DNA of 64,000 bases from Magnetococcales bacterium (GTDB lineage Bacteria > Pseudomonadota > Magnetococcia > Magnetococcales > JADFYX01): assembly GCA_015232365.1 (NCBI GenBank), contig JADFZU010000004.1, positions 5,371-69,370 of the forward strand. Direction: 5' to 3'. The notes beneath the pieces are model-generated. The model searched no databases and had not been told where the DNA came from. It saw nothing but the letters and a program-made list of their open reading frames with translations. The first letter of the stretch is position 1; every line of letters begins with the position of its first letter. Shown in pieces: positions 12,376 to 40,955 of the stretch. Position numbers and translations under genes: made by a program.

Positions 12376-13224
12376 ATGGCTGAGACCAATAAAGATGATG
12401 CTGCAAAAACCACTACCAAGACAGCAGCAACAGGTCAGAGGAAATCTGCTGCAACAAAAAAGGCAACAACGACAAAGCCTGTGACTGCAAGAAAAGCCAC
12501 AGCATCAACAGCTAATAAAAAAACAAGTACTACAAAGGCTGCAACTGCCAAAGCTAGTGGCACTGATAAATGGAATGACATCCATCCAGCTTTAGCAAAA
12601 GCTACCAGTGCAAAAAAATCTGCTAAAACAGCCAAGAAGACTCCAGCAGCATCTAAGGGTGTAGCGGTTACCAAGGCAAAAGCAGCAACTAAACCAAAAG
12701 CAGCAACTAAACCAAAAGCGGCAACCAAATCTGTAACCAAGGCAAAAGCAGCGGGCAAAAAAACCACGCGTAAAATTGCTAGCACTAGCAAGACAAAGGT
12801 GTCGGCGGCATCACTGCGTGGTAGTAATGATAGTCCTACGGCGGCAGATAAATCACTCCAGCTAGCATATAAACAGGTTGAAGTCGAAAGTTTAGGTGCT
12901 GGCATTGCTGCGGTACTGGGTGATGCTGTTAATAAAGTGGTATCTGGTGGCAAAAAGGCCAAGAGTGCTGTTGGAGATGGTATTGGTAGTATCACTTCAG
13001 GCGGCAACAAAACCAATAATAAACAATCTAAAAAAAGTAACCCTTCAGTGATGGAGCAGGTAGCTGAAAAGGTTCCTAACGGAGCAAAAGCTATCATCGG
13101 TGGTGTTGGTCGTGTGGTAACTGGTGGTAAAGATATAGTTGTTGGTACTTTTGGTTGTCTTGGTGGAACAGCGGTCTGTATTGCTGATACAGTTACTGAT
13201 GCTGTAAAGGGTAAAGGCAAATAG
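12376..13224 (+). CDS. Lys/Ala/Thr-rich hypothetical protein at the mamJ position (mamE-mamK interval)
   Basis: Highly basic low-complexity N-terminus with KAATKP repeats. C-terminal VEVESLGAG and GTFGCLGGTAVC motifs are shared with 38758-40494 (both) and 40578-40955 (first only). Confidence 0.8.
   Translation: MAETNKDDAAKTTTKTAATGQRKSAATKKATTTKPVTARKATASTANKKTSTTKAATAKASGTDKWNDIHPALAKATSAKKSAKTAKKTPAASKGVAVTKAKAATKPKAATKPKAATKSVTKAKAAGKKTTRKIASTSKTKVSAASLRGSNDSPTAADKSLQLAYKQVEVESLGAGIAAVLGDAVNKVVSGGKKAKSAVGDGIGSITSGGNKTNNKQSKKSNPSVMEQVAEKVPNGAKAIIGGVGRVVTGGKDIVVGTFGCLGGTAVCIADTVTDAVKGKGK
12677..12730. repeat. 18-bp tandem repeat (~3 copies) encoding KAATKP
   Basis: CAAAAGCAGCAACTAAAC twice plus a degenerate third copy. 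Confidence 0.85.
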
Positions 13225-13303
13225 TATAGCCTTTAGTTTTTTTGCTCGAACGGAGTTTTTTTAAAAAAAGAGCAGATGCAGTAATTTTTGGTGAGGAGTA
13301 ATC

Positions 13304-14344
13304 ATGTCAATAGTTAAGCACAGTGATAAAACGCTATTTTTGGGTATTGATTTGGGCACATCCCAGACTGCTATTATGGCAAATAATGGCAATAAAGAGC
13401 TGATTCGCTCTGTGGTTGGATACCCAAAAGATATTATTGGTGTAAGGCTTCTCAATGATACCAAGGTGGTTGGTGATGAAGCTGTGGAAAAGCGCTCCTA
13501 TATGAACCTTCATTACCCTCTTGAAGATGGTGTTTTAAAAGAGTCTGGCGAGCGCGACACCCAGGCGGCAAAAGAGCTGTTGGAGTATGCTATCTCCCGG
13601 GTTGCACCAGGAGACAGGGGTCGGGTTTGTGGTATTATCGGGGTTCCTGCCAGGGCTTCGGTCACCAATAAAAGCCAGTTGCTGAAAATTGCAGATGAGT
13701 TGATGGATCTATCCATGGTGGTCTCAGAGCCGTTTATGGTTGCTTATGGTCTCAACTGTCTGACAAATACAATTATTATTGATATTGGTGCCGGTACCAT
13801 TGATATATGTGCTATGAAAGGTACTGTTCCTGCTCCTGATGATCAGGTAACACTCCTGAAAGCAGGCAACCATATTGATGATATATTGACTAGTGCAATT
13901 GCTGAATCATACCCAGAAGTGCAGATTACTCCACTGGTTGCCAAAAAAATAAAAGAGCAGTATGGGTTTGTTGGTAAGCCGGCTGCTGACGTTGTGGTTA
14001 ACCTACGCTCCGGCGGCCGACCTAAGGCGTTTGATGTAACTGAGGAGTTACGGTTTGCCTGTGAGACAATTCTACCAGATATTCTGGAAAATGTTGAGCA
14101 GTTGATTACAGTCTTTGATCCTGAAGATCAAGAAGACGCCCTGCAGCATATTATTCTTGCAGGAGGCGGTGGACAGATTGTTGGTCTGCGCCAGGCACTG
14201 CTTGATTTTTTACAAGACCATGGCGATGTAAATATTATTCGTGTGGAAGATCCTGATTATGCTGGAGCTGCCGGTGCACTAAAACTAGCTACAGAACTTC
14301 CGCCAGACTACTGGACTCAGGTCGGTGATGTGATCGGTTCGTAG
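13304..14344 (+). CDS. mamK: MamK actin-like cytoskeletal protein
   Basis: LGIDLGTSQT, VVGYPKDIIG, VVSEPFMVAYG, IDIGAGTIDIC, GALKLATELPPDYW. Confidence 0.97.
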   Translation: MSIVKHSDKTLFLGIDLGTSQTAIMANNGNKELIRSVVGYPKDIIGVRLLNDTKVVGDEAVEKRSYMNLHYPLEDGVLKESGERDTQAAKELLEYAISRVAPGDRGRVCGIIGVPARASVTNKSQLLKIADELMDLSMVVSEPFMVAYGLNCLTNTIIIDIGAGTIDICAMKGTVPAPDDQVTLLKAGNHIDDILTSAIAESYPEVQITPLVAKKIKEQYGFVGKPAADVVVNLRSGGRPKAFDVTEELRFACETILPDILENVEQLITVFDPEDQEDALQHIILAGGGGQIVGLRQALLDFLQDHGDVNIIRVEDPDYAGAAGALKLATELPPDYWTQVGDVIGS

Positions 14345-14398
14345 CTTACAGATTTAAACTTAATAATTAAGGTATAATTTTTTGAAAAGGAGAGGTGA

Positions 14399-14725
14399 AT
14401 GGTTTCCTCAGGTACAGTAAGAAGAGAGAGCGGTATTGGATCACAAATAATGGCTGCAATGAGTTATTTGGGTATTCTGGCTTTAGTGCCATTGGTTACC
14501 AATGGTCGTGATCCTTATGTTGGTTTTCATGCTCGGCAGGGTTTGGTTCTCTGGGTGTGGGAGGTGTTGGCGGTCTTTAGCCTAGCTGTTCCTGTTATTG
14601 GCCGTATTTTTTTCCAGACATCAAGCTTGATCTGTTTTGTCTTATCGGTAGCTGGCCTTTTATCTGTACTACTTGGCAGGGCCTGGAAATTGCCTATAGT
14701 AGGGAATATAGCTACAAAGCTGTAG
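14399..14725 (+). CDS. mamF: MamF-family protein
   Basis: MSYLGILALVPL..FHARQGLVLWVW..WKLPIVG; paralogue of 6878-7213; located between mamK and mamL. Confidence 0.85.
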   Translation: MVSSGTVRRESGIGSQIMAAMSYLGILALVPLVTNGRDPYVGFHARQGLVLWVWEVLAVFSLAVPVIGRIFFQTSSLICFVLSVAGLLSVLLGRAWKLPIVGNIATKL

Positions 14726-15242: not shown

Positions 15243-16208
15243 ATGAGGTATTCTCAGTGCGTCGTTTGTAATGAGACAGTAGGCTGGATTGGCTTGATGG
15301 CTAACTTGGCTCTGTCTACCTTGAAGCTCTTTGTGGGAGTGATCTCTGGTTCTCACGCTCTTGTAGCTGATTCATTATACTCTGCAAAAGATGTTGTTAC
15401 CTCTCTCATAATAATAGTCGGACTGAAAATTTCCAAGCAGCCTATAGATCAAGAACACCCGTTTGGTCATGGCAAAGTTGAGTTTATTCTTGCACTGGTC
15501 GTAAGTCTTATCTTGCTAGTGCTAACCGGAATTCTATTCTATTTCTCAGCAGAGACTCTATTGGAAGGGATGCACACTGCACCCCATCTAATCGCCTTAT
15601 GGACCGCTCTTTTGTCGGTTGCAGTCAACCTTTTCATGTACAAATATACCCGCTGTGTAGCAGTGGAGATTAATAGTCCGGTTGTTGGAATTCTTTCAAC
15701 CCACCATTTTGCAGATGGTCTATCCTCTGTTGCTGTGTCTTTAGGTATTATTGGCTCACATTATTTAGGTATGCCTTGGTTGGATACAGTTGTAGCTCTT
15801 GGTGAGGCGTTGCACCTGATCTATTTGGGCAGTGAAGTTTTTTGGAATGCCTTTAAAGGTTTAATGGATGCAGCAGCCCCGAAAGAGACTGTTAATAAAA
15901 TTAGGCAGGTGGCACTTGAGTGTGTTGGAGTTGAGAGTGTTGAACTTATTCGTACCCGCCTTGTTGGTCAGGAGTTGTGGATTGACATGACTGTTGGTGT
16001 TGACCCTGAACTCTCAGTTGGTTCTGCCAAGGTTATCAGTCGCAGGGTTGAAGAGCAGTTAGCGACTAATATTTCCCATGTTGGCGATATTGGCGTCCAC
16101 TTCCTGGCTAAGCCTGGCTCTGTTCCGGAGATGGTTGAGTTGAAAGAGGAGATTCTTCAGTTATCAGGTGGTAATGAAGATGAGGAACCGGAAAGAGGTT
16201 TGGTGTAA
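15243..16208 (+). CDS. mamM: MamM CDF transporter
   Basis: N-terminal CVVC..GWIGL, ADSLYSAKD, HPFGHGKVEF; C-terminal CDF dimerisation domain. Confidence 0.95.
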   Translation: MRYSQCVVCNETVGWIGLMANLALSTLKLFVGVISGSHALVADSLYSAKDVVTSLIIIVGLKISKQPIDQEHPFGHGKVEFILALVVSLILLVLTGILFYFSAETLLEGMHTAPHLIALWTALLSVAVNLFMYKYTRCVAVEINSPVVGILSTHHFADGLSSVAVSLGIIGSHYLGMPWLDTVVALGEALHLIYLGSEVFWNAFKGLMDAAAPKETVNKIRQVALECVGVESVELIRTRLVGQELWIDMTVGVDPELSVGSAKVISRRVEEQLATNISHVGDIGVHFLAKPGSVPEMVELKEEILQLSGGNEDEEPERGLV

Positions 16209-17542
16209 TGTTAATACCGCTGTTGGCGATTCTGCTCTTTGCGACAACATTCTGGTTTATGTATGTTGGTAAATATGAGCGACGCACAGTGGCTTTGCTT
16301 GGTGGGGCGGGCTTTCTGTTATTAGGTACAGTGCTGGATTTCTATACTTTTGATATGGCTGTAGAGTCAATCTATTTTGAAACCCTAGCACTTATTTTTG
16401 GTCTTACCCTAATATCATCAACCCTGGCAAAATCTGGATACTTCCAGGTTTTGGCTGAGAGAGTGGCTCTATACTCCAGGGGGGACGGGTGGTTGATACT
16501 GGTTATTTTATCTTTGACCACATATTTTTTCTCTCTGTTTGTTAATAATCTTGCCACCATGGTGGTAATTTTACCGGTAACATTAAAGCTGTGTAAATCG
16601 GCTAAGATCAACCCGGTTCCGGTAGTGATTGCTGAGGTGATAGCTTCTAATCTTGGTGGTGCATCCACTATGATTGGTGATTTTCCCAACATGATAATCT
16701 CATCTGCTGGAGAGTTGCATTTTCTTGATTTTATTGGCGGTATGATGGTACCGACTCTTATTCTTCTAGCTGCTGCACTGCTATTTTTTCAGAGTCGCAG
16801 CCATGAAGTTTTTGTTAGGAAAACCAATAAAGGAACTGGAAAAGCTGCTTTCAGCCCTTTTTCCGGTTCTGGTTTAATTGCTGAGCAGCATGTAGATCAA
16901 ACACTGCTTCGTTTAGGCAGTATTACACTTTTTTTGACTTTGGGTGGCTTTCTGCTCGCAGAGTTTGTCAATGTACGCCCAGGGGTAGTTGCATTGTTGG
17001 CAGGGTTTGTTCTGTTGGTTTTTGCTGGCTTTAACCGCAAAGAGCTTTTTGTTGCAACCGGAAGCGGTGACATACTGTTCTTCGTAGGGCTGTTTGTTAT
17101 GGTGGGTGGTATTCAAGGGGCAGGGTTGCTTGATAGTGTCTCTTGGTTGATAAACGAGGTTAGTGGTGGCAAGCCGCTAATTGAACTTCTGGCCCTGTTG
17201 TGGATAGCCGGGATGGTGACGCCTTTTATGAATGCAGGTCCGGCAACCGCATTTTTTATTCCGGTTGCCGATGAATTGAACGGTTTTATTCCTGGTGATG
17301 CAGTTTGGTGGGCGTTATCCCTAGGGGTTTTAGCCGGTTCGTCAGCCTCTTTAACTGGAGCTACAGCAGGATCTATTGCTGCGAGCCAGATGGATGAGCA
17401 TATTAAGGAGAACCCAGAGGTGTTAAGCTATATACCTGGGGGTAGAAGTTTGGGTTTTGGTGAGTACGGTCGTTGGGGTTGGCCCATTATGGGGCTATTT
17501 TTAGGGATATCTTCTCTCTACATTGTTTTGATCAGTCCGTGA
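16208..17542 (+). CDS. mamN: MamN (ArsB/NhaD-like ion transporter)
   Basis: SLFVNNLAT, ASNLGGASTMIGDFPNMII, WWALSLG; between mamM and mamO. Confidence 0.92.
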   Translation: MLIPLLAILLFATTFWFMYVGKYERRTVALLGGAGFLLLGTVLDFYTFDMAVESIYFETLALIFGLTLISSTLAKSGYFQVLAERVALYSRGDGWLILVILSLTTYFFSLFVNNLATMVVILPVTLKLCKSAKINPVPVVIAEVIASNLGGASTMIGDFPNMIISSAGELHFLDFIGGMMVPTLILLAAALLFFQSRSHEVFVRKTNKGTGKAAFSPFSGSGLIAEQHVDQTLLRLGSITLFLTLGGFLLAEFVNVRPGVVALLAGFVLLVFAGFNRKELFVATGSGDILFFVGLFVMVGGIQGAGLLDSVSWLINEVSGGKPLIELLALLWIAGMVTPFMNAGPATAFFIPVADELNGFIPGDAVWWALSLGVLAGSSASLTGATAGSIAASQMDEHIKENPEVLSYIPGGRSLGFGEYGRWGWPIMGLFLGISSLYIVLISP

Positions 17543-17543
17543 T

Positions 17544-19505
17544 ATGGCAAATAATAAACGCAAAAAAATAAATGTACCTTTTTGTCGACAGAAATGGAAA
17601 TTTCCTTCAGTAGTGATGGTCTTGGCCATCTTGTCGACATTCGCGTGGGGGTTCCACCTGCTAAAGGATCACAAGCTTGAGCTAAAGGGAGTTAGTAAAG
17701 TCGACCTATCCAAGTCGCTAGTCTCCTCTGTTCTGCCTGTGGTGGCTGGTGGTGGTAGCCCTATGGATACAATTGTCCGAGCTTCGCTGGTCAATATTGC
17801 CGGTATTGAGGATGGAGCCAATGGCAGAACCAGGGGGTTTGTCTCTCGTGGCTCAGGTGTGCTTATAACTGCTCAAGGCCATATTGCAACCTCCAACCAT
17901 CTGCTGGACGGCCTCAAGGAGATTCTGGTTAGAGTCCAGACTCCAAACGGACCTCGTCAGTACTCTGCAAAGCTTTTAAAAGCTGTCTCTGAGCATGATC
18001 TGGCGGTACTTAAACTGGTATCAAGAGATCTTTTTCCCCACCTGATTCCTGGGGATTCCCGATCTCTTAAACCTGGGGATGCTGTCATATCCTGGGGCGA
18101 CCCTGACGGAACAAATGCAGTACGGCGTGATGGAACTGTAAACGGTCTGCCGTCACCTACTTCAGTTACTATAGCCGGACAGCCTTTGAGTGGCTTGATT
18201 CCAACCAATTCGGTTTACCACTGGACCCAGGGGGGCGGGCCGATGGTTAATAACCGTGGCCGTTTGCTTGGCATCAACTTGGCGGTTCAGGGGCAAATGG
18301 GCGAAATGATGGGGTTTGCGATTCCGGTTCATGTACTCTTCACTGATTTTCAGGATGTTGTCAACTTTCCTGTACCTTTACCAGCACCAAAAACTGCGAC
18401 TGGACAGGGGGTTGCTGGCACGCCCGTTTTTTTTCCAAACGGCAGTAATGCCCAAGCCATTCCGGTGGCAGCAACAGGGACATTATTGCCAGATCCAGAG
18501 AAAATTCTCGGTCGCTCCCGTCGACCATCAGACGATTGGTGGCATAAGGCAAAATCTATTCTTCACCTGAATCTAGGTCTCCAGCCACCACCAGTATCAA
18601 GCAGCTCTCTAGATGGTTTGATTCCACAAAAAAACAGTTCACATGTTGAAGTAACCAGGGTTCTTGGTTATCCGTTACGGACATTTCTTGGCCTGCTGTT
18701 TTTGGGATTTATATCAGGTGTGAGCGGCGGTATGATGACCATGGGTGGAGGGATCATCAAGGTTATCGGCTTGATGACCGTCTTTGAATATGGAATTTTA
18801 TTGGTCCGTCCGGTTGCCTACATAACCAACGTATTTATGTACGGTGCAGCAGCTCTGCGTTATCGTAAAAATGAGCTGTTTACCTGGGATACCGTCCGTC
18901 CTATGGTTCCCTGGGCCATGGTAGGTGTGATTTTAGGCTACTTTATCGGTAATGTGCTAAATGTTTATGTTATCAACTATCTGTTAGGCGGCTTTGCATT
19001 TATGCTTGGCTTGAAGATGTTGGTAGAGCTATCTGAATCTTCTGATAAACACGGTGGTCAGAGTTGGATACATTACTATTTTGGTAGTAGGGATATTGAT
19101 AGCGGACTTGCCAGGACGAAACCAGCAACAGGTTTGGTTAAGGACGGTATTCTCGGGCTGCCAATGGGGGTTATAAGCGGTATTCTTGGTATTACTGGTG
19201 GAGTTGTTGAGGTTCCTCTGCAAAGATATATTGCCCATGTTCCTCTACGCAACGCTATTGCCAATAGTGCAGTATTGGTGTTTTTTGCCTCTATTGTTGG
19301 TGCTATAGTTGCTTTGATTCACGGCGTGCAGTCCGGCAGCTTCTCTCTGGAAACACCTCTGACCATGGCTCTTATTTTAATTCCAGGAGCCTATTTTGGT
19401 GGTCAGCTCGGTGCTTGGTTGACTACTGTAGTCTCCTTGAAAATTCTCCGTTGGTTGTATGCAATTTTGATGTTTGCAGTTGCTATTAGGATGGTTTTAG
19501 CATGA
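17544..19505 (+). CDS. mamO: MamO (degenerate trypsin-like domain plus TauE transporter domain)
   Basis: GSGVLI..TSNH..HDLAV with the GNSGG motif replaced by WTQGGGP; C-terminal GGMMTMGGG and [13 protein letters not shown] TauE repeats. Confidence 0.95.
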
Positions 19506-20257
19506 GCCCCAGTGGCAATAACATAGTAGCTATAGGCTTGGTGGCAATTCTGATCTTTTTTGTCTACGGCCTTTTTTCCGGGCCTGATTTTTCGAGCCTG
19601 CCAGCCGCTTCGACGACAGTCAATAAATCAATTGCTCTGACTGGAGCTGGGGCGGTTCCTGTTGCCATGGTTGCCATAGCACCAGCAGCAACTCCAGGAG
19701 TAGCCGGTTATACGGACCCTGCTATCCAGCTCTCTGAAGGTCATTGGCAGGGAATGGAGACATTGCCGCTCTCTATGGAGCTTAAGAAAAAATTAAAATT
19801 ACCGAGAAGACTAAGAGGGTTGTTGGTTGATGAGGTGACTCTTTATGCGGCAGAGTCAGGATTGATGGCAGGAGATGTATTGGTTGCAGTTAATAGTCGG
19901 CAGGTGTTCTCTATTGAAGATCTGGTTCGGGAGACTAAGCGGATTCAAGATAGAAATTCAGCGACATTGACTGCGTATCGTCGAGAAGAGTGGAAAACTT
20001 TTACTCTAAAGGTAGCACCTGGAGACAATCTTGGTTTTGCCCAGGTGGAGACAGCTCCTATGATATTACCAGGAGCGATGCGTCCCCATCCATATCGTGG
20101 TCCATGTTCTAGTTGTCACAGGATTGCCCAGACCGGGCAGCCTATGATGCCGGACCCTGATGGGATTATTCTACCACCGCCACCAATTCGTGCTGATGCC
20201 CCTATGCCCCATCAAGATCGTGGCCCTTGTTATGTTTGCCATAAAATTATTAATTGA
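19502..20257 (+). CDS. mamP: MamP (PDZ plus two magnetochromes)
   Basis: [11 protein letters not shown] domain, [12 protein letters not shown] and [12 protein letters not shown]. Confidence 0.96.
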
Positions 20258-20268
20258 GGTAACTTAAA

Positions 20269-20931
20269 ATGAGTTCTGATAAGCAAAATGTGAATATCCT
20301 TGATGAGGTCAGTTTTTTCTTGCACGCCAGTCGTCAGGTTATTAAAAAAGTTACCGTTGCAGCTATTAACGGCTTCAATTCTCTCTTTTCTTTTGAAGAT
20401 GGTATGCGTAGCCATTTCTATCTTGATAAAGGTGTGCAGTACACCAAGCGAGGTCGTTATAATCAGGCGATATCTCTATTAGAGAACGTTCTTGCGGAGC
20501 ATCCGCTGCAAAAAGATGCACTGTTTCATTTAGGGTTCTGCTATCTAAAAGTTGAGGAGACTGAGCGTGGTATTGAGATGCTTGAGAAAGCCGAGGTTTC
20601 TGGCGACCACAGCTCCCAGTTATACTCCATTCTTGGTATGGCTTATCTACAGTCAAAAAATTATGAGAAAGCCATAACAATTTTGGAGAAGGCACTCATC
20701 CTTGATGAGAATAATTTCAACTTGAACTACAGATTAGGCGTAGCTCTAGATAATATTAAAGAGTATGACCGGGCGCTATTGGCGTTTGAAAAAGCCTCGT
20801 CCCTACGACCTAATGAGGCTAAAGTTTATCAATCCATGGGTTTTGTCTATGAGCAGATGGATAGGCATGATGATGCCATTATCAATTTTAAAAAGGCTGC
20901 CCATTTGGAAGATGGAAAACAGGATCTGTAA
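20269..20931 (+). CDS. mamA: MamA TPR scaffold
   Basis: TPR repeats, ENNFNLNYRLGVALDN; follows mamP. Confidence 0.95.
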   Translation: MSSDKQNVNILDEVSFFLHASRQVIKKVTVAAINGFNSLFSFEDGMRSHFYLDKGVQYTKRGRYNQAISLLENVLAEHPLQKDALFHLGFCYLKVEETERGIEMLEKAEVSGDHSSQLYSILGMAYLQSKNYEKAITILEKALILDENNFNLNYRLGVALDNIKEYDRALLAFEKASSLRPNEAKVYQSMGFVYEQMDRHDDAIINFKKAAHLEDGKQDL

Positions 20932-23483: not shown

Positions 23484-24449
23484 GTGACGGGAAAAGATAG
23501 ATTAAACCTGGATGATCTGGAGCCAGGCTCAGAAAATAGTGAACGTATGCGCCGTATGAAGCGGTTGATGCGTGAGCTATATAAAGAGGAGTTTGAAACC
23601 AAGAGGTTTCGCATGCCTCCGATTCGGGCAAAATCTCTGATTATCTACCTCTCTTTTGCCTCGATAGTTGTTTTTGGTGTTACTACCCTGTATAACTTCA
23701 ATCGCTTCGTTAATTTGGAGGAGAGGGTTCTTTCAGCAAACGGCCACGTTGAGGATGTGTTGCAGCGGCGAGTTAATCTGTTTGATAACCTGATTAACTT
23801 AACCCTGAACCAATCAGCTCTGGAGCAGGAGGTTTTTCGTCATGTTGCCAATGTACGTTCAAACATTGGCCGTGGTATGAACCAGGAGAATAGTGGGGGA
23901 GTTGATGCTGGCCAAACAGCTCCAACGGCTGTAGAAGCCTCTCCAGGAGCCTCTCCAGAAGCAATAAAAGCTGTACCATCTTTAAATGGGCCATCGCAGC
24001 CATCATTAATGGCTAGCGGAATGATGACCAAGCTTGCTGGTCTACCGGCAATGGCTAAACTTCTGGCTGTTGTTGAGCAATATCCAGAAATTCGCTCTTC
24101 GGTAACATATCAGCAGTTGATGGATAAATTGGTAGAGATTGAAAACCGTATCGCCAAACGCCGGGATGAGTATAATGAGGAGGTGAGAATTTACAACACC
24201 TTGATCTCCTCTTTTCCATGGTATGTACTGGCAAGGGTTACTGGTTTTGAAAGGTATAATTATTTCCATATTGGTGCTGGGCTGAATTATGGTTTGTTTA
24301 AACTACCTGATGTATCTACCCATGTTTTTAAAAGACTTTTGCCGCCTCCATTAGATGCAGTCCAGCCAAAAGAGGCTATAGTAGAAAAACCACCTGTCAG
24401 TGATGTTAAACCACCAACTACTGATACTACGAAGATTGAGAAACAATGA
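23484..24449 (+). CDS. mamQ: MamQ (LemA family)
   Basis: TM, then YNFNRF..LQRRVNLF..VVEQYPEI..ENRIA..YN..FPW. Confidence 0.95.
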   Translation: MTGKDRLNLDDLEPGSENSERMRRMKRLMRELYKEEFETKRFRMPPIRAKSLIIYLSFASIVVFGVTTLYNFNRFVNLEERVLSANGHVEDVLQRRVNLFDNLINLTLNQSALEQEVFRHVANVRSNIGRGMNQENSGGVDAGQTAPTAVEASPGASPEAIKAVPSLNGPSQPSLMASGMMTKLAGLPAMAKLLAVVEQYPEIRSSVTYQQLMDKLVEIENRIAKRRDEYNEEVRIYNTLISSFPWYVLARVTGFERYNYFHIGAGLNYGLFKLPDVSTHVFKRLLPPPLDAVQPKEAIVEKPPVSDVKPPTTDTTKIEKQ

Positions 24450-26368: not shown

Positions 26369-26373
26369 TTAAG

Positions 26374-31245: not shown

Positions 31246-31360
31246 TTTTTTAACAGAGTTGAGAATTGCTATCAAAAAGAAAATAAGTTAGATTCTTTAT
31301 CTATATTTATTATTATGATCTGTTTTGGTGTGTGTTATTTTATAAATATAACAGGGTGTT

Positions 31361-31663
31361 GTGATGTTTAGGTTTTTTGTTGTAGCGGTTTTTATGTTTG
31401 GTTTGCTCTCTTCAGGGCTATCTTTTGCAATGGGTGAGGCGACAAACGGTTCATTGTTGGTAAAAGTCATCCCTCGTGGAGCTGAGGTAGTGATTAATGA
31501 TAGGGTTGTTGGAAAAGCTCCTCTACTATTGACAAAAGTTCCAAAAGGCAAGGTATGGGTTCAGGCCAGATTAAACGGTTACAGAACCTGGGGTAAGAGT
31601 GTTGATATAAGTGAATCAGAGAAGAATACTGTCACTCTGATTCTAGCTAGATCATTGAAATAA
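31361..31663 (+). CDS. Small secreted PEGA-domain protein
   Basis: Signal peptide; GSLLVKVIPRGAEVVIND..GKAPL..LNGY. Confidence 0.85.
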   Translation: MMFRFFVVAVFMFGLLSSGLSFAMGEATNGSLLVKVIPRGAEVVINDRVVGKAPLLLTKVPKGKVWVQARLNGYRTWGKSVDISESEKNTVTLILARSLK

Positions 31664-31808
31664 AGGTTGGTAAAATTTTGCAAACAGGCTGCTTTTGCAG
31701 ATATTTTGTTAATTATTGTAAATATCTCTAACCTGATTGACCAATAAAGTTTTCCCAGTTATAGTTAAATGTCAATTTTCTTTTAATTTTTTCTACATTC
31801 TCGGCAAC

Positions 31809-34800
31809 ATGGCTGATATTACAGGGGCTGAAGAGGGCGAAATAGAATCCAACGCCCTTTTTCTTACTTACGGGGGAATTGTTGATTCCTTCTTTGCTGA
31901 TGGCAAAGAGGCTGGGGAGCCTATATCTGTCGTACCAGCCAACCTTAACGTAAGTCAGTCACCTGTAACCGATACACTTCCTCCAATAACTTTTTCAGAC
32001 TCTGTAGAGGATCATGAAGATTCCAAAGATGATGCGGAAACTGCGTTATCTGAAGAGAGTGGCGAAAAGTCTCCAGAAGATACCACCACTCTTGTCACTA
32101 ATAATCTCCCCAAAAAAGAGCTTGAAAAAATTCAGGAGTTGGTCGATGGGTATCGACGTGTTCTTAGCAAGAAGAGTAAAAGTGGTGATCGTGTGGAGTT
32201 GGGCGAGGAAGAACAGCTTCTTGCCTCATATCTAAAAGATTTTCGTAGTGCTCTAAAAAGTGAAGATGAATCCGCACTTGAGTCCAATCCATTTTATGAT
32301 CTGACAAAACAGATCTACAAATTAAACCTAGACGGTGTCAGCGAAGCCTTTCAGAAGATAAGCAAGGGAGGGGATGAGCCTCTGCCACGGTCTATTTTTG
32401 TTGCTCGAAGCTTAAAAGAGATCTGGTCCGGATCTAACAGTTCAAGAAATGGGTTTTTTAATAAGTTGTCAGAAACTTTTGGCAAGTGGATGGCCTTTTT
32501 CAGAACCCCTCTATCACTACTGCTATTTGTAGGTTCCACATATACCACTGCAAGGGGTGTTAATGACCTTCTGCAGATGGATGATGTTGGTTTGGTGTTT
32601 GGTGATCTTTTTGCTGGTAGTTCTGGAGAGGCAAACCGCTATATAGTTTGCCTTGCTAGCGGTCTGGTTCTCTCTTCGGCTATTCTAGATTATAAAACCA
32701 GAATATTTCAATCCATGGTTGAATGTGGGCTGGTGTTCAAGGGAATAAAAGATGCTTTTTTACGTTTTCCTCGTTGGATGATTCTGGCGACACTTTTAGC
32801 CTTCGTCTCGGTTAAAACCAATTATGATGGTATTGTCTCCATCATCTCAAAAAAAGAGGATCTTGCCCAGCAGTCCCAAATTATCACCAGCCGGGTCCGT
32901 AAGGCTATCGGCAGCCCATTTTTTATGAACGCCAATGATCCAGATTCACTGTTTGATCTGCAAGCCTCATTGCAGCAGACTACCAGAGAGATCCGAGGAG
33001 TTTTTAGGACTCTACCTGAAGATGAGATCAAGGGGGTTGCCTCAAGTGGCGACCCTCGTAAAGGCCCACGCTACTGGGCTAAACATTTTATTGTTCATGG
33101 TGGTTATGAGCCTGGTGTCAACGATGTAAAATTGGCTTTTAATGATCATAGGTTTGCCAGACAAATCGATGACATGCTTAAAAATTCTGGTATTGATTTC
33201 AGTTCATCTTTTTCAGAAAAAGTTGAGATTCTCAGAGGTAAATACGAGGATCACCTGAATTCCACTGATAGTTTGGTTCGCAAATACCTTGGCGAACTGA
33301 ATGTCCTGATGAGTATGGGTGGCTACTCTCTAGATGAAATTAAGCGGGTTTTAGCTCTTGAGCACTATCAAATTAATGATATTGTTCAGATTATTGTTAA
33401 TGCACTAGAAGAGAATAAACAGGCATACAAAGAGACTACTGTTGATTTGAGTGAGCTGACCAATACCTATCTGGGGATATTACAGATGGTTGATAAGTCT
33501 GGAACCTCTGGTTTGAGTTCCTATCAGGTCAAAGCAGAAGTTGTTGTACCCAAAATCGAAGCTATTGATGAACTGAGAAAGGGAAAAATCCCTGCAGCCA
33601 AACATAAGAATTTTGAAGAGCTGCGGGAGTCTCTTATGCTGAAATACGGCATAAGCCTTGGTGGCATGCTTTTAATTTCGATTCTTTTCTTCTCTATCAG
33701 CATGGACTTTGGCGATCCTATTGTCTATAGCCGAATGACTGCTAGAAGAGGGAAAAAAGACCGGGTATTCTATAAAGACCGACTGGCCAAGCTTAAAAAA
33801 TGGGAAGATGAGTTCTTTAGGAAAGCCAGCCTGTTTTTTGAGAATAATGAGGTTAGAGAGGTGTTTCTAGACCCTCAGCCTCCTGGTGAGACACTGGTTA
33901 AAAATGGATTTTATCTGCTGCTGGAGAAGGTAAACTTTGAGCTGAAAGATCATCAAGACAAGACCGGCTATGAGCGGTTTGACTCTTGGTTTCAAGGGAT
34001 GTTCCGGTTTAGTAGAACTGCTGATATGGCAGGATTGAATAACCGTCTGGCATCTACTAGAACCATACTCAGTAAACCCAGCCGTTATTTTCCTGATTGG
34101 GGAAAGTTTATCTATCCGGATTTTTGTCTTGATAAAACTTTCAAACGCAGCACATTCCTTGAATGGCATACTGAGAAACAACGTATTTTAGAAGAGCAGC
34201 GTGTCAACTTTTATCAGGAGTTGCGGGATATTTCAAAATCCCAACCCGGTTTGGTATCGAACTCTCCAACTGACCTATCTCCGAGACAAAAAAGATTAGC
34301 TGACTGGGCTGATAAAAAAGGCATGACGTTTGTTGGTAGAGCCTTGATGGCTGTTAACCGTTTCTGGTTTATTATGTTCCAAGCTGTAAAAAAAGAGCCT
34401 CTTGCTGGGTTTAGTTATACTAGAAGGGGGTGGCTCAAGGCGTTTTCTGAAGATAGTCAGGAGTCAGAAAAAATTGTTGAGTCTATTTATAGCTTTATTC
34501 CAGATTTGAAGAAGGTTGTTTTTGAGACCTTGCCATATATTCAAGAGAGTTATCTTGATCCAATATTGGAGTTTCTTGCCAAATATCCTGGTTACGACGG
34601 CTATAACGATGTTCTTAATGGTGAAAAGCTGCAAAAGCAGTTTGAGGAGATTGAAAAAGAGGCTTTGGATCTTTGGGGTGTCTCATTTTTTGCCACAGAC
34701 GATCCTGGTGGTTATTTAGGTCTCTCCTCTATAATGACACAAGAGGAGATTAACAACCTCCAGGAGATGGTAGCAAAAACCGGTACTGATTCTGTGGTGT

Positions 34801-35771
34801 TCTCCCGAAGAGTTGAAAAACTTACATCTGATATGAAGCAGGCATATGTTATCGTCAGTACTACTGAGGAGATAAACCATCTGCTCACCCAGGTGCGGAC
34901 CATATGTGTTGATGTTAACCAATCTTTGATGAAAATCAAAATGCGAGCTTGGGAGCTTCGTAGTAGCGGTACTGCTAATGCAAACCAGTTTTTAAATACC
35001 GCCACTGATCTGCAAACAAACGCACCAAAAGAGGCTGATAGTATTTTGTCTGTAATGGAGGCAATTCTGCAATCAAATCAGCCATATACCAGAGAGAACC
35101 TTGCTACTCTGCGTACGCTGTATCAGCAATCATCTGAGCTTCAGGACCGTATCATGGCTTTTGTCGATGTCGGCAAAGATAGTACCACCACAACCCAAGA
35201 TTATAGTCCAATTGCACCTGTAATGTCTGAACCTGTTTATGAAGAGCCAGAAGCAACTGAGGAGGTGCTGGCCGAATCTATGTCAGAGGTAGAAGAGCAA
35301 GCTGCAGTAGTGGAGCCTTACACCCACACCAGGCACAACTTACAGGAAATGCAGTCTCCAGAAGATGAAGTAGAACAAAGCTCAGAGGCTGTTATTCCAA
35401 CATTTATCCAAGATGATTTTGATGATGATGGTCCTGTCGTTATGCCTTCATTACCAGAAGCTGATGAGTCTGTAGTGGCATCTCGCCAGGAAGAGCGGAT
35501 AAACCGGAAGGTTTTTGCCATTTATCAAACTAGCCGTGGTGCATTGTTTGAGGGGTATACCGGAGAGATCGGCACAAGCAGCCTTGATTTTATCTCCAAC
35601 ACAGACCCTTCTATGTTGCCAATAGGCAATGAAGGCATTCTTCAGGTAACTGTTGATGATGCCAACTACCAGTTTGCAGGTAAAGTTGTTCGTGTTTCAG
35701 ATGCTCGTATTGTAGTGCGTGTTCTTGCTGAGCAGGACAAGTTTAAGGAACTGCTGGCTCCCATGGCCTGA
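31809..35771 (+). CDS. Large hypothetical membrane protein (3+1 TM, helical) with C-terminal PilZ-like domain
   Basis: Acidic N-terminus; three hydrophobic segments, a ~270-aa loop and a fourth TM; long helical tail ending RQEERI..EIGTSSL..GKVVRV. The ATG at 31809 is preferred over the ORF-track start at 31737. Confidence 0.75.
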   Translation: MADITGAEEGEIESNALFLTYGGIVDSFFADGKEAGEPISVVPANLNVSQSPVTDTLPPITFSDSVEDHEDSKDDAETALSEESGEKSPEDTTTLVTNNLPKKELEKIQELVDGYRRVLSKKSKSGDRVELGEEEQLLASYLKDFRSALKSEDESALESNPFYDLTKQIYKLNLDGVSEAFQKISKGGDEPLPRSIFVARSLKEIWSGSNSSRNGFFNKLSETFGKWMAFFRTPLSLLLFVGSTYTTARGVNDLLQMDDVGLVFGDLFAGSSGEANRYIVCLASGLVLSSAILDYKTRIFQSMVECGLVFKGIKDAFLRFPRWMILATLLAFVSVKTNYDGIVSIISKKEDLAQQSQIITSRVRKAIGSPFFMNANDPDSLFDLQASLQQTTREIRGVFRTLPEDEIKGVASSGDPRKGPRYWAKHFIVHGGYEPGVNDVKLAFNDHRFARQIDDMLKNSGIDFSSSFSEKVEILRGKYEDHLNSTDSLVRKYLGELNVLMSMGGYSLDEIKRVLALEHYQINDIVQIIVNALEENKQAYKETTVDLSELTNTYLGILQMVDKSGTSGLSSYQVKAEVVVPKIEAIDELRKGKIPAAKHKNFEELRESLMLKYGISLGGMLLISILFFSISMDFGDPIVYSRMTARRGKKDRVFYKDRLAKLKKWEDEFFRKASLFFENNEVREVFLDPQPPGETLVKNGFYLLLEKVNFELKDHQDKTGYERFDSWFQGMFRFSRTADMAGLNNRLASTRTILSKPSRYFPDWGKFIYPDFCLDKTFKRSTFLEWHTEKQRILEEQRVNFYQELRDISKSQPGLVSNSPTDLSPRQKRLADWADKKGMTFVGRALMAVNRFWFIMFQAVKKEPLAGFSYTRRGWLKAFSEDSQESEKIVESIYSFIPDLKKVVFETLPYIQESYLDPILEFLAKYPGYDGYNDVLNGEKLQKQFEEIEKEALDLWGVSFFATDDPGGYLGLSSIMTQEEINNLQEMVAKTGTDSVVFSRRVEKLTSDMKQAYVIVSTTEEINHLLTQVRTICVDVNQSLMKIKMRAWELRSSGTANANQFLNTATDLQTNAPKEADSILSVMEAILQSNQPYTRENLATLRTLYQQSSELQDRIMAFVDVGKDSTTTTQDYSPIAPVMSEPVYEEPEATEEVLAESMSEVEEQAAVVEPYTHTRHNLQEMQSPEDEVEQSSEAVIPTFIQDDFDDDGPVVMPSLPEADESVVASRQEERINRKVFAIYQTSRGALFEGYTGEIGTSSLDFISNTDPSMLPIGNEGILQVTVDDANYQFAGKVVRVSDARIVVRVLAEQDKFKELLAPMA

Positions 35772-35976: not shown

Positions 35977-37221
35977 ATGGATTTTAGGTCTGTTAATATT
36001 AGAGCAGGTAAAATAGCTGAGGGGGGCGATATGAAATTAGGGGGTGATACAGCGCCAACCATTTTTTTGGAACTGGTTGCTGGGTTGATTTTTTTGTCTG
36101 TAATAATGGTTGTTGCTAGCCTGGCTAAAACTCCTCCTGCCTCGGTGTCAAAACCACATCAAACTCTTAAGTCCACCTCTGTCGCTGCATATTCTGAGAA
36201 GTCCGCACTTGCAAACCCTGTGGACTATATCCTCAATACAGTTCTAAATCAGGTTATGCAACGTTTTCAAGCTCTAGATCAAAAAGTTGATGCTCTGGTT
36301 GCCGTAAGAGATGAGCATGTCTTTTCAAAAGTAAACACAGTTACGGCAAAAGTTGCAGAGTTAAGGCAGAGCCAGCAAAAAAATATACTGCCTGGGGTTA
36401 ATGAGCTACAGAGGAAAATAGACTTTATTACTCTTGAGCATGAGAGGTATATAACTCCAACTATTGCCGGGCTAAGCGACCACCTTGCCAATTTATCCTC
36501 TATAAATGGTGTTGGTATTCCGGCCATAGGGGGAGGGGCAATAGTTGATGAAGATAGCGGTTCTGGAGCTACTGGGTATATTGCAGAACCAGAACCGGTA
36601 TTGCTTGAAGAGTCGTCCTTAGATCCTGAAACGGTAGAAGTAGCTAAACAGGCAACCATAATCAAAAGCGACTTATCTACTGCTGTTGATCCACCCCCAG
36701 TCGTTAGAAAGATGAGTAATCTTGAGCTTGCTAAGAGGCTGCAGAAGGTTTTGGCCCGTTACGGTATTGGCTCCACTATCGGTTTAAACAATAATGGATT
36801 ACTATTAGAGGAGTTTTTCGATTTTGATATAGGATCATCTTTTTTGCCCAAGGATAAAAGAGCCAAACTCTCTATACTGGCAGATGCTTTATCAGAAATT
36901 TTTCTCTGTTACGCCAATTCAACAGACATTTTAGTTATGGCGAAATGTCAGGGCAGGAGTAATCCTGTTGGTGTAAGTTCAGTTATAGTTAAAGCGTTCT
37001 CAATTGGTGACAATGTCGGTACTGAGCGGTTCAACTATAATTGGCGGTTGGCATCTGCAAGATCAATAGAGGTGTTGAAAGCAGTTGTTACTTCTCGCCC
37101 TGACCTGCTGGAGTTTAAAAATAGAGAAGGGTTAATTATGTTAAAAGCTGTAGCAGAGCTTGCAAAGTCTGGATCAAAAAGGACACGGAGTATTGAGCTT
37201 CAGTTTGTTATAGATAAATAA
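35977..37221 (+). CDS. MotB/ZorB-like single-TM protein with degenerate OmpA-like C-terminal domain
   Basis: TM IFLELVAGLIFL (Glu at the position of the conserved MotB/ZorB Asp), coiled coil, FDIGSSFL..NWRLASARS..RSIELQF. The EGHTD motif is not retained. Confidence 0.65.
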   Translation: MDFRSVNIRAGKIAEGGDMKLGGDTAPTIFLELVAGLIFLSVIMVVASLAKTPPASVSKPHQTLKSTSVAAYSEKSALANPVDYILNTVLNQVMQRFQALDQKVDALVAVRDEHVFSKVNTVTAKVAELRQSQQKNILPGVNELQRKIDFITLEHERYITPTIAGLSDHLANLSSINGVGIPAIGGGAIVDEDSGSGATGYIAEPEPVLLEESSLDPETVEVAKQATIIKSDLSTAVDPPPVVRKMSNLELAKRLQKVLARYGIGSTIGLNNNGLLLEEFFDFDIGSSFLPKDKRAKLSILADALSEIFLCYANSTDILVMAKCQGRSNPVGVSSVIVKAFSIGDNVGTERFNYNWRLASARSIEVLKAVVTSRPDLLEFKNREGLIMLKAVAELAKSGSKRTRSIELQFVIDK

Positions 37222-38674: not shown

Positions 38675-38757
38675 TACAAAAAAATATAGAAGGTCGACAG
38701 TTTTTTTTTGCTGTAGTTCCATGTTAGAATTCCTGTTTATTTCTTTATAATCTGAGG

Positions 38758-40494
38758 TTGATAATGGCTAAGGATAGATTTGATAACGATTCACCAACAA
38801 CTCAAAGTCGGCAAGAGAGCGACGATTTACAAAATATTGCTACTCTCAAAGGTGTAGATATATCTCTAGGTTTTGGCCGTAGGCCATCTCCTGATCAATT
38901 TGAAGAGACACAAGTCTCTGTTAAACTTTATGAAAGTGCTGGTAAACTTGCGGCAAGAGCTGAGAAAAAAGTGATCACCGATCCTTGGAAAATTAAAGAC
39001 GGTTCTGATAAATCTCCTATAAGCCGCCTGAAAAGCCTGGCTTCTGAAATAAGTAAAGAGGAGAGTACGCGGCCTAAATCTATCTCTCCTCTGGAGTCAT
39101 TTATTCAGTCAAAAAGTTCTAAAAAACCTTCTGCTGTAAATGGTGGTAGTGCTGAAAATGTTGTTGTGGCAAGGGTTGCAGCAAACAGTGAGCAGCTAAA
39201 AAAACAGGGAGTACCTGATACGTTTGCAGCAGGTGATAATATAAAGCAGCCACAGCTTTCCAAGCAGATGGTTACCAGTGAACATAAAAAGCCAGTTAGG
39301 GTTCCAACTTCTGGCAATGCCAAGGCTGCACCCCATCGCCAGGAGGTATATAAACCTTCTGTTGGTTTGCCATTTGCGCCTCTTTCAGAAAGCAAGATCA
39401 TAACTACAACTACAACCAGATCCAAAACAGAACCTGCCCCTATTAAAAATCTTGCAGCTAGTGGTGCAGTCTCTATTATTTCAAGGTCTAGAGTTGTTAA
39501 AAGCAGCTCTGGATCAGGGCGTACTACAATCAAACGCAAACAGATGATGAATCAGCCTACAATTTTGCATGCAATATTTACAAATAAGGGCCATGACCAA
39601 CTACCTGTCACACCCACTAAAAAAGTTGCTGAAGTTTCTGCTAGCAAGGGAGCTGATGTAGTTGCATCAGAAGACAGTGCAGGACTGTTTACCCAGCTTA
39701 AACAGGTGAAAAAGGCACAGATTAGTAGAAAAAGCGTAATTAAAAATAGTCAGTTTGTCCCTGTATCACAGGACTCTCCAGATAGTGGGGATATCCATGA
39801 AGATGTTGAAGTGTCTCGACCTTCAACAGTTGACAAAATTGTTACTTTGGCCGAAAAAGCTGTTGACCGTCAGCAAAATGATCTTAACTCATCGACTTTT
39901 AAGCCGGTCTATTCTGGTGCGGAGGCGGTTCCCATGGGCTCTTCAAAAACTCTGTTCTCTATTTCTAAACCGGAAACAGAAGCGCAAAGTTTACAACCTG
40001 ACTTTGGTGCAATATCTACACAAAAAAGTGAAGAACGGCCCTCTTATGAATTTACCATGACCGCTTCCATGGCTAGAACCAGAAATGCGGCAGGAGAAGA
40101 GGAGCAGTATTGGTCTGTACCTGTGGAGACTCTTGGCTCTGGTGTTGCCAATATGTTGGGAAATGCGGTTGGCGGTGTTGTCCATGTCAGTCAGGTTATT
40201 ACAGGCGGAACAAAACGCAAAGTGACAAGCAAACCTAAGGCTAAACCTCAGGCTGCAAAATCTGTAAATGTTGTGAATGTGCCGCTAAAGCGTGGACAGC
40301 GAGTAAAAAAGGCGATGGCTAATAAGATTGGCAGCGGTATTGGTGGCATCTTCAGTGGAGTTGGTGAAGTAGCAAAAGGTGGGGCTAATATTGTCGTTGG
40401 TACTCTCGGCTGTATTGGTGGTGCACTGGTCTGTGTTACTGGTGCAAAAGTTGGAGCCGATAATCGAGCACAAAAAAAAGAACTGTTAAAATAA
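38758..40494 (+). CDS. Low-complexity Ser/Lys-rich protein; C-terminal domain paralogous to 12376-13224
   Basis: VPVETLGSGVANMLGNAV and IVVGTLGCIGGALVCV vs VEVESLGAGIAAVLGDAV and IVVGTFGCLGGTAVCI. Confidence 0.8.
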   Translation: MIMAKDRFDNDSPTTQSRQESDDLQNIATLKGVDISLGFGRRPSPDQFEETQVSVKLYESAGKLAARAEKKVITDPWKIKDGSDKSPISRLKSLASEISKEESTRPKSISPLESFIQSKSSKKPSAVNGGSAENVVVARVAANSEQLKKQGVPDTFAAGDNIKQPQLSKQMVTSEHKKPVRVPTSGNAKAAPHRQEVYKPSVGLPFAPLSESKIITTTTTRSKTEPAPIKNLAASGAVSIISRSRVVKSSSGSGRTTIKRKQMMNQPTILHAIFTNKGHDQLPVTPTKKVAEVSASKGADVVASEDSAGLFTQLKQVKKAQISRKSVIKNSQFVPVSQDSPDSGDIHEDVEVSRPSTVDKIVTLAEKAVDRQQNDLNSSTFKPVYSGAEAVPMGSSKTLFSISKPETEAQSLQPDFGAISTQKSEERPSYEFTMTASMARTRNAAGEEEQYWSVPVETLGSGVANMLGNAVGGVVHVSQVITGGTKRKVTSKPKAKPQAAKSVNVVNVPLKRGQRVKKAMANKIGSGIGGIFSGVGEVAKGGANIVVGTLGCIGGALVCVTGAKVGADNRAQKKELLK

Positions 40495-40577
40495 AGCTAG
40501 GCTAAACGGATTGCAACTATCAATGCTTATAATCAAAATACAGTTAAATTTTCTGTATTTATTTATGGAGAGATATA

Positions 40578-40955
40578 ATGTCGTATAATAGTACAGATGA
40601 TGATTATCTTGGTGAGTTGACCTTGGATGATGAACAACCTACAGTTGCCCAAGATTATGTTGCCTCTGAGTCGGCAGCTACTGATGAAGTAGTGCACGAG
40701 CCTGTTTTTGTTCCTGTGGAGAGCCTTGGTGCTGGGGTAGTCAACTTTTTAGGTGAGATGGTCGGTGGCTTGATTGGTTTAAAAGGACCTGTTCAACAAT
40801 CGCTAGAGAAGGGGGCACAGATTGTCAAAGATAAGGTCGAAGGTTTAAAAGCAAAAAAAACCACCCCTCACGATGAGGAGACAATAATACTTGATCAAGA
40901 ACCAATGGCTGAGCAGCCGGTTCAGGTCGCCAGGGAGGAAGATCCTCATCTATAA
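40578..40955 (+). CDS. Small acidic protein carrying the same VPVESLGAG motif
   Basis: GGAGAG RBS; D/E-rich; VPVESLGAGVVNFLGEMVGG. Confidence 0.78.
   Translation: MSYNSTDDDYLGELTLDDEQPTVAQDYVASESAATDEVVHEPVFVPVESLGAGVVNFLGEMVGGLIGLKGPVQQSLEKGAQIVKDKVEGLKAKKTTPHDEETIILDQEPMAEQPVQVAREEDPHL

Follow-up and report, generated by a model that had tools for sequence, protein, structure and literature searches.

A family of Maq1 paralogues in a Magnetococcales bacterium: putative magnetosome adaptors with a MamJ-like C-terminal helix

We analyzed a 64,000-nucleotide (nt) stretch of contig JADFZU010000004.1 (positions 5,371 to 69,370 of the forward strand; GenBank assembly GCA_015232365.1), here called the window, from a Magnetococcales bacterium whose 2.84-Mb assembly is 83% complete. 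A magnetosome gene cluster lies inside the window, its genes identified with Pfam and NCBIfam. Three of the window's genes, A, B and C, encode members of one protein family, and two more members, D and E, are encoded elsewhere in the assembly. Gene A occupies the slot between mamE and mamK. We found that the members are paralogues, that the family extends across the order, that its genes recur beside mamK, and that its motif 1 is similar at the profile level to the C-terminal MamJ helix. MamJ (NCBIfam NF040987) is an adaptor of Magnetospirillum by which magnetosomes are attached to the cytoskeleton of actin-like MamK filaments and MamY. We think it rather probable that these proteins are divergent MamJ/Maq1-type, tail-anchored magnetosome adaptors with hypervariable, probably disordered cytoplasmic N-termini.

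The family came to light in a first-pass annotation, which noted that three open reading frames (ORFs) share motif 1, V(E/P)VE(S/T)LGxG(I/V)xxxLGxxV, that two of them also share motif 2, IVVGT(F/L)GC(L/I)GGxxVC, and that the genes at 38.7-41.0 kb are thereby related to a core magnetosome-operon gene. We searched both motifs as regular expressions against 29,674 six-frame segments (2.56 million residues) covering the whole assembly. Motif 1 matched A, B and C only, with 9e-8 matches expected from residue frequencies, and motif 2 matched A and B only, with 4.5e-10 expected. By BLASTP, A and B align across both motifs (52 bits, E 7e-12, 41/122 identical), and C aligns with B (E 2e-7) and with A (E 4e-4) through the motif 1 region alone. 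The shared motifs are thus borne out, and B and C are genuine paralogues of the core-operon gene that follows mamE and precedes mamK. Composition and charge likewise agree with the low-complexity N-termini originally described as basic, long and Ser/Lys-rich, or short and acidic: residues 1-160 of A are Ala/Lys/Thr-rich with a net charge of +32, residues 1-445 of B are Ser/Lys-rich with +16, and residues 1-40 of C are acidic with -11. Gene B, whose ORF opens at a TTG, more likely starts at the ATG at 38764 (576 residues). Pfam and NCBIfam assigned no family to A, B, C or E. A sequence search of the PDB with the module profile gave no match below E 0.29, and the ESM Atlas gave no usable match by features; its model of B is poor (predicted local distance difference test score 0.38), with all structural neighbors at template modeling scores < 0.4.

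Two side observations concern gene A. A 261-residue antisense ORF covers nearly all of it; the plus-strand product is the one conserved across other genomes, and the antisense frame is most likely a by-product of the Ala/Lys/Thr-rich codon composition of A. A-type proteins also have the sequence KWN(D/E)(I/V)HPAL in common, a candidate paralogue-specific partner-binding motif.

Although first described as having three members, the family has five in this genome. Searching the assembly with the C-terminal part of A returned gene D on contig C18 (303 residues), which ends 29 nt 5' of a second mamK, mamK-II, that is 66% identical to the window's mamK. Gene E on contig C59 (about 500 residues) was found with the family hidden Markov model (HMM; E 5e-9); it is acidic, carries KQP(V/A)(A/E)E-type repeats and has motif 1 only. 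The assembly holds three mamK copies, one each in the window, on C18 and on C59, and two of the five family members, A and D, sit directly 5' of a copy. Some large neighboring genes also have paralogues beside other family members. A 414-residue protein of unknown family encoded two genes 5' of B has a paralogue directly 5' of D (BLASTP 29% identity, E 1.4e-52), and a 1344-residue protein, also of unknown family and encoded 5' of B, has one directly 3' of E (35% identity over 764 residues, E 6.6e-146); the 1344-residue type, the 414-residue type and the family genes may together make up a unit that recurs. When the C-terminal module is placed in a tree, A, B and D belong to three clades, each with its own support and each including related genomes; the paralogues are therefore older than this species. 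Seven D-type orthologues keep an N-terminal KG(I/V)EAF(R/K)xVxNSLAAQQ (about residues 28-46 of D), another candidate paralogue-specific partner-binding motif.

Gene A corresponds to a gene already named in the literature. In Candidatus Magnetaquicoccaceae, the gene that separates mamE from mamK was called maq1 by Koziaeva et al. 2019 (PMC6783814); the text consulted describes it as lacking homology in GenBank and as probably family-specific, and likens its position to that of mamJ. The same account is repeated in the consulted portions of Shimoshige et al. 2025 (PMC11950176) and of the HHB-1 paper of January 2026 (PMC12791574), the latter adding one homologue from a second family. We found that the ORF intervening between mamE and mamK is a member of our family in UR-1, FCR-1, HHB-1, YQC-9, WMHbinv6 and WMHbin3, with the order mamE-A-mamK also seen in UR-1, FCR-1 and HHB-1. 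The Maq1 proteins of UR-1, FCR-1, YQC-9 and HHB-1 match the family HMM at E values from 6.5e-33 (UR-1) to 1.5e-21, and an HMM of the window's own members matches the UR-1 ORF at E 1.8e-13. In BLASTP against UR-1 Maq1, B aligns over both motif regions (E 8e-9) and A over motif 1 only (E 2e-4), so that similarity to Maq1 is restricted to the C-terminal module. From the shared slot and the similarity to the UR-1 ORF, A is thus the positional orthologue of maq1; B to E are maq1 paralogues, of which the consulted text of the maq1 literature makes no mention. The family can therefore not be called unnamed, as it first was, since it includes a gene named in 2019. The first reading had also held that assignment to an already characterized family would remove its novelty. 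The links to maq1 and MamJ do reduce it; neither link appears in the portions of the literature that we searched.

Profile searches outline how far the family extends. The module profile matched 53 of 56 genomes of the order, including all 34 high-quality ones; the three genomes without a match are 75-78% complete. A broader profile again matched 53 of the 56 and only one of 345 other genomes of the phylum, marginally (E 5.6e-4). Up to six copies occur per genome in the order. Among 1.84 billion representative proteins, 85 representatives reached E<=1e-3. Ten of the 85 were looked up; five were named, all as "hypothetical protein", three from Magnetococcales and two labeled Gammaproteobacteria. 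By these searches, the family seems to occur only in magnetotactic bacteria among the genomes covered. The HMM search of genomes that the first-pass annotation had proposed, taken together with the mamK-linked loci described below, thus returned relatives restricted to magnetosome gene clusters. The N-terminal parts vary widely in net charge, from -18.9 to +10.9 per 100 residues among the 61 representatives of at least 250 residues (27 acidic, 14 near-neutral and 20 basic). As a side observation, the family genes of five loci labeled gamma, Thiotrichales or Pseudomonadota nest within the Magnetococcales Maq1 clade (a 22-row group with 99/98 support), which suggests either transfer of a mamK-adaptor pair between classes or mislabeled bins.

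The association with mamK is recurrent. Taking the best-hit locus from each of 30 genomes of the order, with 1.5 kb of flank, we found that mamK adjoins the family match in 25. We also retrieved 79 loci with a MamK profile and counted family ORFs ending no more than 400 nt 5' of mamK. Such an ORF was present in 41 of 51 Magnetococcales-labeled loci, in all seven loci labeled gamma, Thiotrichales or Pseudomonadota, in four of eight alpha-labeled loci, in none of 12 labeled delta or Desulfobulbia, and in the single Nitrospinota-labeled locus. For seven of the ten Magnetococcales loci lacking an upstream family ORF, the gene 5' of mamK encodes MamE, directly in six and with a 77-residue ORF between in one; four of these seven come from genomes with a family gene beside another mamK copy. 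Just 3' of mamK, eight of the 51 Magnetococcales loci have ORFs of 60-120 residues with motif 1 plus one short helix, which are orthologues of C. B-type genes stand directly 5' of a mamK in relatives. Within the window's genus, two genomes have the order B-type, mamK, C-type, and two others have B-type and C-type adjacent without mamK, as in the window.

Motif 1 provides the link to MamJ. MamJ-type sequences were taken from ORFs located 5' of mamK in Magnetospirillum, Paramagnetospirillum and related metagenome-assembled genomes; of 17 such ORFs tested with the NCBIfam MamJ model, 10 reach 116-552 bits. At the C-terminus these proteins have the sequence (V/I)PVEDL(L/V)GG(I/V)FG.AGSAVRGVF, and motif 1 reads (V/I)PVE(S/T/G)LG.G(I/V)...LGDAVGGVV. 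When 70 family modules were compared with 12 MamJ-type C-termini, hhalign returned a probability of 95.4% (P 1.9e-8, 37 columns); a separate comparison of the broader family profile with a MamJ profile gave 95.9% (E 5.3e-9). Because two of the 12 MamJ-type sequences are under the NCBIfam cut-off and one was unscanned, we repeated the comparison with only the nine MamJ proteins above the cut-off, which gave 92.0% (P 6.6e-7), or 87.2% (P 3.9e-6) when gamma-labeled family rows were dropped as well. As controls, none of 40 column shuffles scored higher than 17.2 and the reversed alignment scored 20.1, compared with 46.8 for the real alignment, and the window's MamD, two MamD/G-like and two MamF-like proteins scored at most 0.6% against both profiles.

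Searches in both directions gave concordant results. An HMM of the MamJ C-terminus, run against the 29,674 assembly segments, returned below E 10 only D (2.3e-4), C (3.3e-4), B (0.01) and A (1.8). Against 9,222 ORFs from the loci, all of its matches outside alpha-labeled loci were family members, the best being C-like mini-proteins (E 7e-8). The family HMM in turn matches bridging sequences, namely the LM-1-type MamJ-like proteins (about 1e-6) and two weak MamJ relatives, the proteins of loci L137 (4e-5) and L138 (4e-8), the last two of which the NCBIfam MamJ model scores at E 6e-27 and E 3.5e-11, respectively. Hydropathy is also comparable, with grand average of hydropathy (GRAVY) values of 0.8-1.4 for the motif 1 helices and 1.2-1.4 for the MamJ helix; motif 2 is more hydrophobic (1.56-2.03). 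In the MamJ sequences compared, the hydrophobic part with VPVEDL begins 67-71 residues before the C-terminus, which would place it from residue 359 onward in the 426-residue MamJ of MSR-1. According to the consulted text of PMC11628618, the helix at residues 359-379 of MSR-1 MamJ anchors the protein in the magnetosome membrane and is needed for targeting, which also requires the MamF-like proteins MmsF and MmxF; membrane-bound MamJ withstands carbonate, salt and pH extraction. From these comparisons we regard motif 1 as likely to be homologous to the MamJ C-terminal helix.

Two side observations touch on MamJ itself. LM-1, WMHbin7 and nKLKbin1, all alphaproteobacterial, have a second EIPVEDL-type gene (match at 2501-2569) about 4.5 kb 5' of the MamJ-like gene; motif paralogy is therefore not limited to cocci. 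The MamJ (493 bits, NCBIfam) and mamK on MCP1_Contig_39 of Terasakiella sp. PR1 resemble those of Magnetospirillum moscoviense BB-1, and this contig may not come from Terasakiella.

Several observations weigh against reading the family as MamJ-type adaptors. The similarity to MamJ spans only about 36 residues. The NCBIfam MamJ model (cut-off 100 bits) gives A, B and C no match even at E<=10 and D 21.5 bits (E 1.5e-4), and 83 of 84 family representatives are without a match to it. The MamJ HMM built from the strict nine sequences recovers D, C and B but misses A, the next match being an unrelated segment at E 1. An HMM of 18 instances of the MamJ N-terminal "SPW" motif (W..LL..SPW), drawn from alpha and gamma sequences, finds none of the five members below E 50; the "DPW" of B and the "LLSPW" of E, which resemble this motif by eye, gain no backing from that HMM. 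Equating motif 2 with the Cys tail of MamJ fared no better, as a relaxed hhalign superposes the Cys pairs with zero confidence and the second alignment reaches 0.7%. A and B are basic and MamJ is acidic; the central acidic repeat domain of MamJ, reported to be non-essential, is absent from A and B, while C is acidic without repeats and E has acidic repeats. Our mapping of the VPVEDL segment onto MSR-1 MamJ was obtained by arithmetic from other MamJ sequences. On the genomic side, the third mamK, on C59, is directly preceded by a second mamE without a family gene between, and B and C adjoin no mamK in this genome. Both MamF-like candidates in the window score under the Pfam cut-off, and the loop separating motif 1 from motif 2 is rich in Lys, an awkward match for a simple two-pass topology. 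Given the failure of the full model, the missing SPW motif and motif 2 counterpart, the basic A and B, and the range of N-terminal charge, the family is not strictly MamJ; as judged from sequence, it is a MamJ/Maq1-like variant and a distant relative of MamJ through motif 1.

The likeness to MamJ could also be convergence of short glycine-rich helices, the family being an independent invention of Magnetococcales and gammaproteobacteria with a role unknown. That only about 36 columns align, that the strictest sets give 87-92%, and that full-length MamJ models fail, with no N-terminal or motif 2 correspondence, would all fit this account. We nevertheless consider it very unlikely, since all controls (shuffled, reversed, and other Gly-rich proteins of the magnetosome) score far below the real comparison, HMM searches in both directions are specific, the position of the gene and its overall architecture match those of MamJ, and graded intermediates occur in alpha- and gamma-labeled genomes. 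A different account would have the members be substrates of MamF-like insertases with a role in crystal growth or membrane organization like that of MamD or Mms5, with no MamK tethering and with adjacency to mamK an operon accident. The architecture does fit the description of MamD and Mms5 in PMC11628618, and N-terminal charge seems too variable among the 61 representatives for one conserved binding surface. Against it, A, B and C have no NCBIfam match to MamD, Mms6 or MamG, whereas three other ORFs of the window do; comparison of the family by hhalign with the MamD and MamD/G-like proteins of the window yields at most 0.3%; and family genes adjoin different mamK paralogues, and do so in two additional classes. 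We give this account a slim chance.

Alternatively, motif 1 might serve as a short peptide that binds MamK, with no part in membrane anchoring. In that case the members, mini-proteins included, would be soluble and would regulate the dynamics of MamK filaments, like MamJ and LimJ in AMB-1, and motif 2, where present, would be the sole membrane element. Such a peptide would account for the mini-proteins beside mamK: the coupling of motif 1 to mamK is strict and extends to the 60-120-residue ORFs directly 3' of mamK. Motif 1 is also only moderately hydrophobic, with conserved Glu and Asp, and one of the two MamK-interaction regions of MamJ is C-terminal according to the consulted text of PMC3905215. 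The matching segment of MamJ, however, is the one needed for membrane targeting in a protein that resists extraction once bound, and the GxxxG pattern and GRAVY of motif 1 fit the "moderately hydrophobic glycine-rich" class of PMC11628618. A purely soluble role is accordingly unlikely; membrane anchoring and MamK binding by motif 1 are compatible.

For the tail-anchored adaptors that we favor, we propose the following mechanism. The motif 1 helix (ΦPVExLGxGΦxxxLGDxVGGΦΦ, with GxxxG) would insert post-translationally into the magnetosome membrane, as demonstrated for the MamJ helix, possibly with assistance from MamF-like proteins encoded nearby that may act on glycine-rich tails; the more hydrophobic motif 2 of A, B and D may insert too. 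The N-terminal region would extend into the cytoplasm and bind MamK filaments or other cytoskeletal partners, each paralogue preferentially serving the neighboring mamK, so that A would pair with the core mamK and D with mamK-II. B and C may be the remnant of an ancestral B-mamK-C triad after loss of mamK. The module had first been taken for a shared amphipathic or oligomerization unit with variable-length spacers. A shared C-terminal module behind hypervariable N-termini was indeed found, and its better interpretation is a glycine-zipper helix that anchors in the membrane. Since helices with GxxxG are also able to associate with one another, the module may oligomerize as well.

Coordinates of the family members, their motifs and the genes around them are collected in Table 1.

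Table 1. Family members, motifs and other features of the window (window positions) and of contigs C18 and C59 of the same assembly.
Feature	Position	Strand	Description
mamZ and mamX	3512-6221	-	Pfam/NCBIfam
Second MamF/MmsF-like candidate	6878-7213	-	111 residues; DUF4870 E 0.0011, 19.3 bits (cut-off 25)
mamH	8406-9665		Pfam/NCBIfam
mamE	10154-12286	+	Trypsin-like, two magnetochrome and PDZ domains; directly 5' of gene A
Gene A	12376-13224	+	282 residues; between mamE and mamK; basic Ala/Lys/Thr-rich N-terminus, C-terminal module with motifs 1 and 2; family HMM E 4.3e-29
Antisense ORF over gene A	12435-13220	-	261 residues
Motif 1 of A (VEVESLGAGIAAVLGDAV)	12877-12930	+	Start of moderately hydrophobic GxxxG helix; GRAVY 0.88-1.2; aligned to MamJ helix by hhalign
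Motif 2 of A (IVVGTFGCLGGTAVC)	13135-13179	+	Most hydrophobic stretch of A, two Cys; 19-residue GRAVY 1.56
mamK	13304-14344	+	MreB_Mbl/Actin match, actin-like; starts 79 nt 3' of gene A; presumed filament partner
mamF-like candidate	14399-14725	+	108 residues; directly 3' of mamK; weak DUF4870 match along whole profile, E 0.066, under cut-off
mamM, N, O, P, A	15243-20931		Pfam/NCBIfam
MamA-like TPR protein	20947-23481	+	844 residues; between mamA and mamQ
mamQ, B, S, T	23484-26886		Pfam/NCBIfam
mamD	27103-28185	-	Pfam/NCBIfam
PEGA proteins	29797-31663	+	Between mamD and the 1344-residue gene
1344-residue protein	31737-35771	+	5' of B
414-residue protein	35977-37221	+	Two genes 5' of B
Gene B	38758-40494	+	578 residues from TTG; long Ser/Lys-rich N-terminus, module with motifs 1 and 2; family HMM E 1.8e-40
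B N-terminal segment with "DPW" motif	38941-39018	+	Common to six B-type orthologues
Motif 1 of B	40117-40170	+
Motif 2 of B	40390-40434	+	GRAVY 2.03
Gene C	40578-40955	+	125 residues; "mini" member: acidic head, motif 1, short conserved helix SLxKGxxIVKDKV, without motif 2; family HMM E 1.2e-9
Motif 1 of C	40710-40763	+	GRAVY 1.2-1.55
Gene D	C18:28997-29908	-	5' of mamK-II
Paralogue of 414-residue protein	C18:30029-31105	-	Directly 5' of D
Paralogue of 1344-residue protein	C59:1-2209	-	Directly 3' of E
Gene E	C59:2281-3831	-	Motif 1 only
1265-residue protein	C59:13223-17020	-	Between gene E and second mamE-mamK

The candidate directly 3' of the window's mamK stands where an ORF is termed mamF-like in UR-1 and FCR-1, according to the consulted text of PMC6783814 and PMC11950176. 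Three other loci bear mention. The MamA-like protein with tetratricopeptide repeats matches the MamA model over its last 200 residues (135 bits, cut-off 200), and its N-terminal 630 residues have no family in Pfam or NCBIfam. Between mamD and the 1344-residue gene are a protein with PEGA and FGE-sulfatase (formylglycine-generating enzyme-like) domains and a 100-residue PEGA protein. On C59, the 1265-residue protein combines DUF4347, a filamin repeat and a caspase (Peptidase_C14) domain and adjoins an OEP/HlyD/M50 export set. For promoters, we found no TGGCAC-N5-TTGC sigma-54 match within one mismatch 5' of B, the total over the whole window being that expected by chance, and sigma-70 and terminator scans of 38.3-41.3 kb gave no decisive signal.

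The family is real and conserved, and it is directly testable and relevant to magnetosome cell biology. The literature up to 2026, in the text consulted, limits mamJ to Magnetospirillum and has cocci linking magnetosomes to MamK by unknown means (PMC9840458, PMC6783814, PMC11950176, PMC10653835). Awal et al. 2023 (PMC10653835) predicted that MamJ-like interactors had been missed outside spirilla, and they confirmed one such protein in Magnetovibrio. In the portions of the literature consulted, we found no paper relating maq1 to MamJ by sequence or reporting maq1 paralogues, mini-forms or an order-wide family, and such a comparison may already exist elsewhere. With a glycine-rich tail matching the MamJ anchor tail, magnetotactic cocci appear to have their own versions of the tether. 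If so, the most abundant magnetotactic bacteria already carry the missing tether in their clusters, in several copies, and the cocci proteins share the one MamJ element known to mediate targeting to the magnetosome membrane. This would provide cognate pairs of MamK and adaptor for heterologous expression, an approach that succeeded once for Magnetovibrio, a defined signal of 20-40 residues for asking what MamF-like (Tic20-type) proteins recognize, and a genetic handle on double chains, multiple chains or unchained clusters in cocci. More tentatively still, and with somewhat less than an even chance of being right, MamJ would not be a Magnetospirillum invention. MamJ, the LM-1-type MamJ-like proteins, the gammaproteobacterial pre-mamK proteins, and Maq1 with its paralogues may belong to a single old superfamily of tail-anchored adaptors whose defining feature is the VPVExL-GxxxG helix and which has traveled with mamK through alpha-, gamma- and Magnetococcia-type clusters. 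Genomes with several mamK copies might then keep matched adaptor-filament pairs together with anchor-only "mini-J" proteins, which would set the number of magnetosome chains or clusters per cell.

Among known systems, PMC11628618 in its consulted portions describes MamJ, MamD and Mms5 as alike in build: the N-terminus is soluble and rich in Ala, and at the C-terminus there is a moderately hydrophobic, glycine-rich membrane helix with a GxxxG zipper. The family shares this plan with MamD and Mms5 but differs in having no sequence relation to them, by NCBIfam or by hhalign, and another genomic partner. MamJ too is encoded directly 5' of mamK, as A and D are here (B, C and E are not), and it has a long hypervariable low-complexity N-terminal part followed by a conserved C-terminal VPVE(D/S)L-G-G glycine-zipper helix, whereas A, B and D have an extra hydrophobic Gly/Cys segment, motif 2, where MamJ has a CxxC...C tail. 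Maq1 shares with A both the mamE-x-mamK slot and the C-terminal module. It differs in that Maq1 proper lacks the two Cys of motif 2, that A, B and D fall in clades apart from the one with FCR-1 and YQC-9 Maq1, and that Maq1 was described, in the text consulted, as without homologues and from one family (two since 2026), whereas the family here is order-wide and multicopy. A further likeness is to Mg-1g50 of Magnetovibrio blakemorei MV-1, which did not turn up in two MamK-centered scans or in a motif scan of genome contigs and which we compare by description only. As described in the consulted text of PMC10653835, it is small (289 residues), is encoded directly 5' of mamK-II, has no orthologues by BLASTP, substitutes for MamJ despite very low similarity, and improves complementation by its cognate MamK. 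By analogy, Mg-1g50 would be a functional precedent for the adaptor role that we propose for Maq1 and its paralogues.

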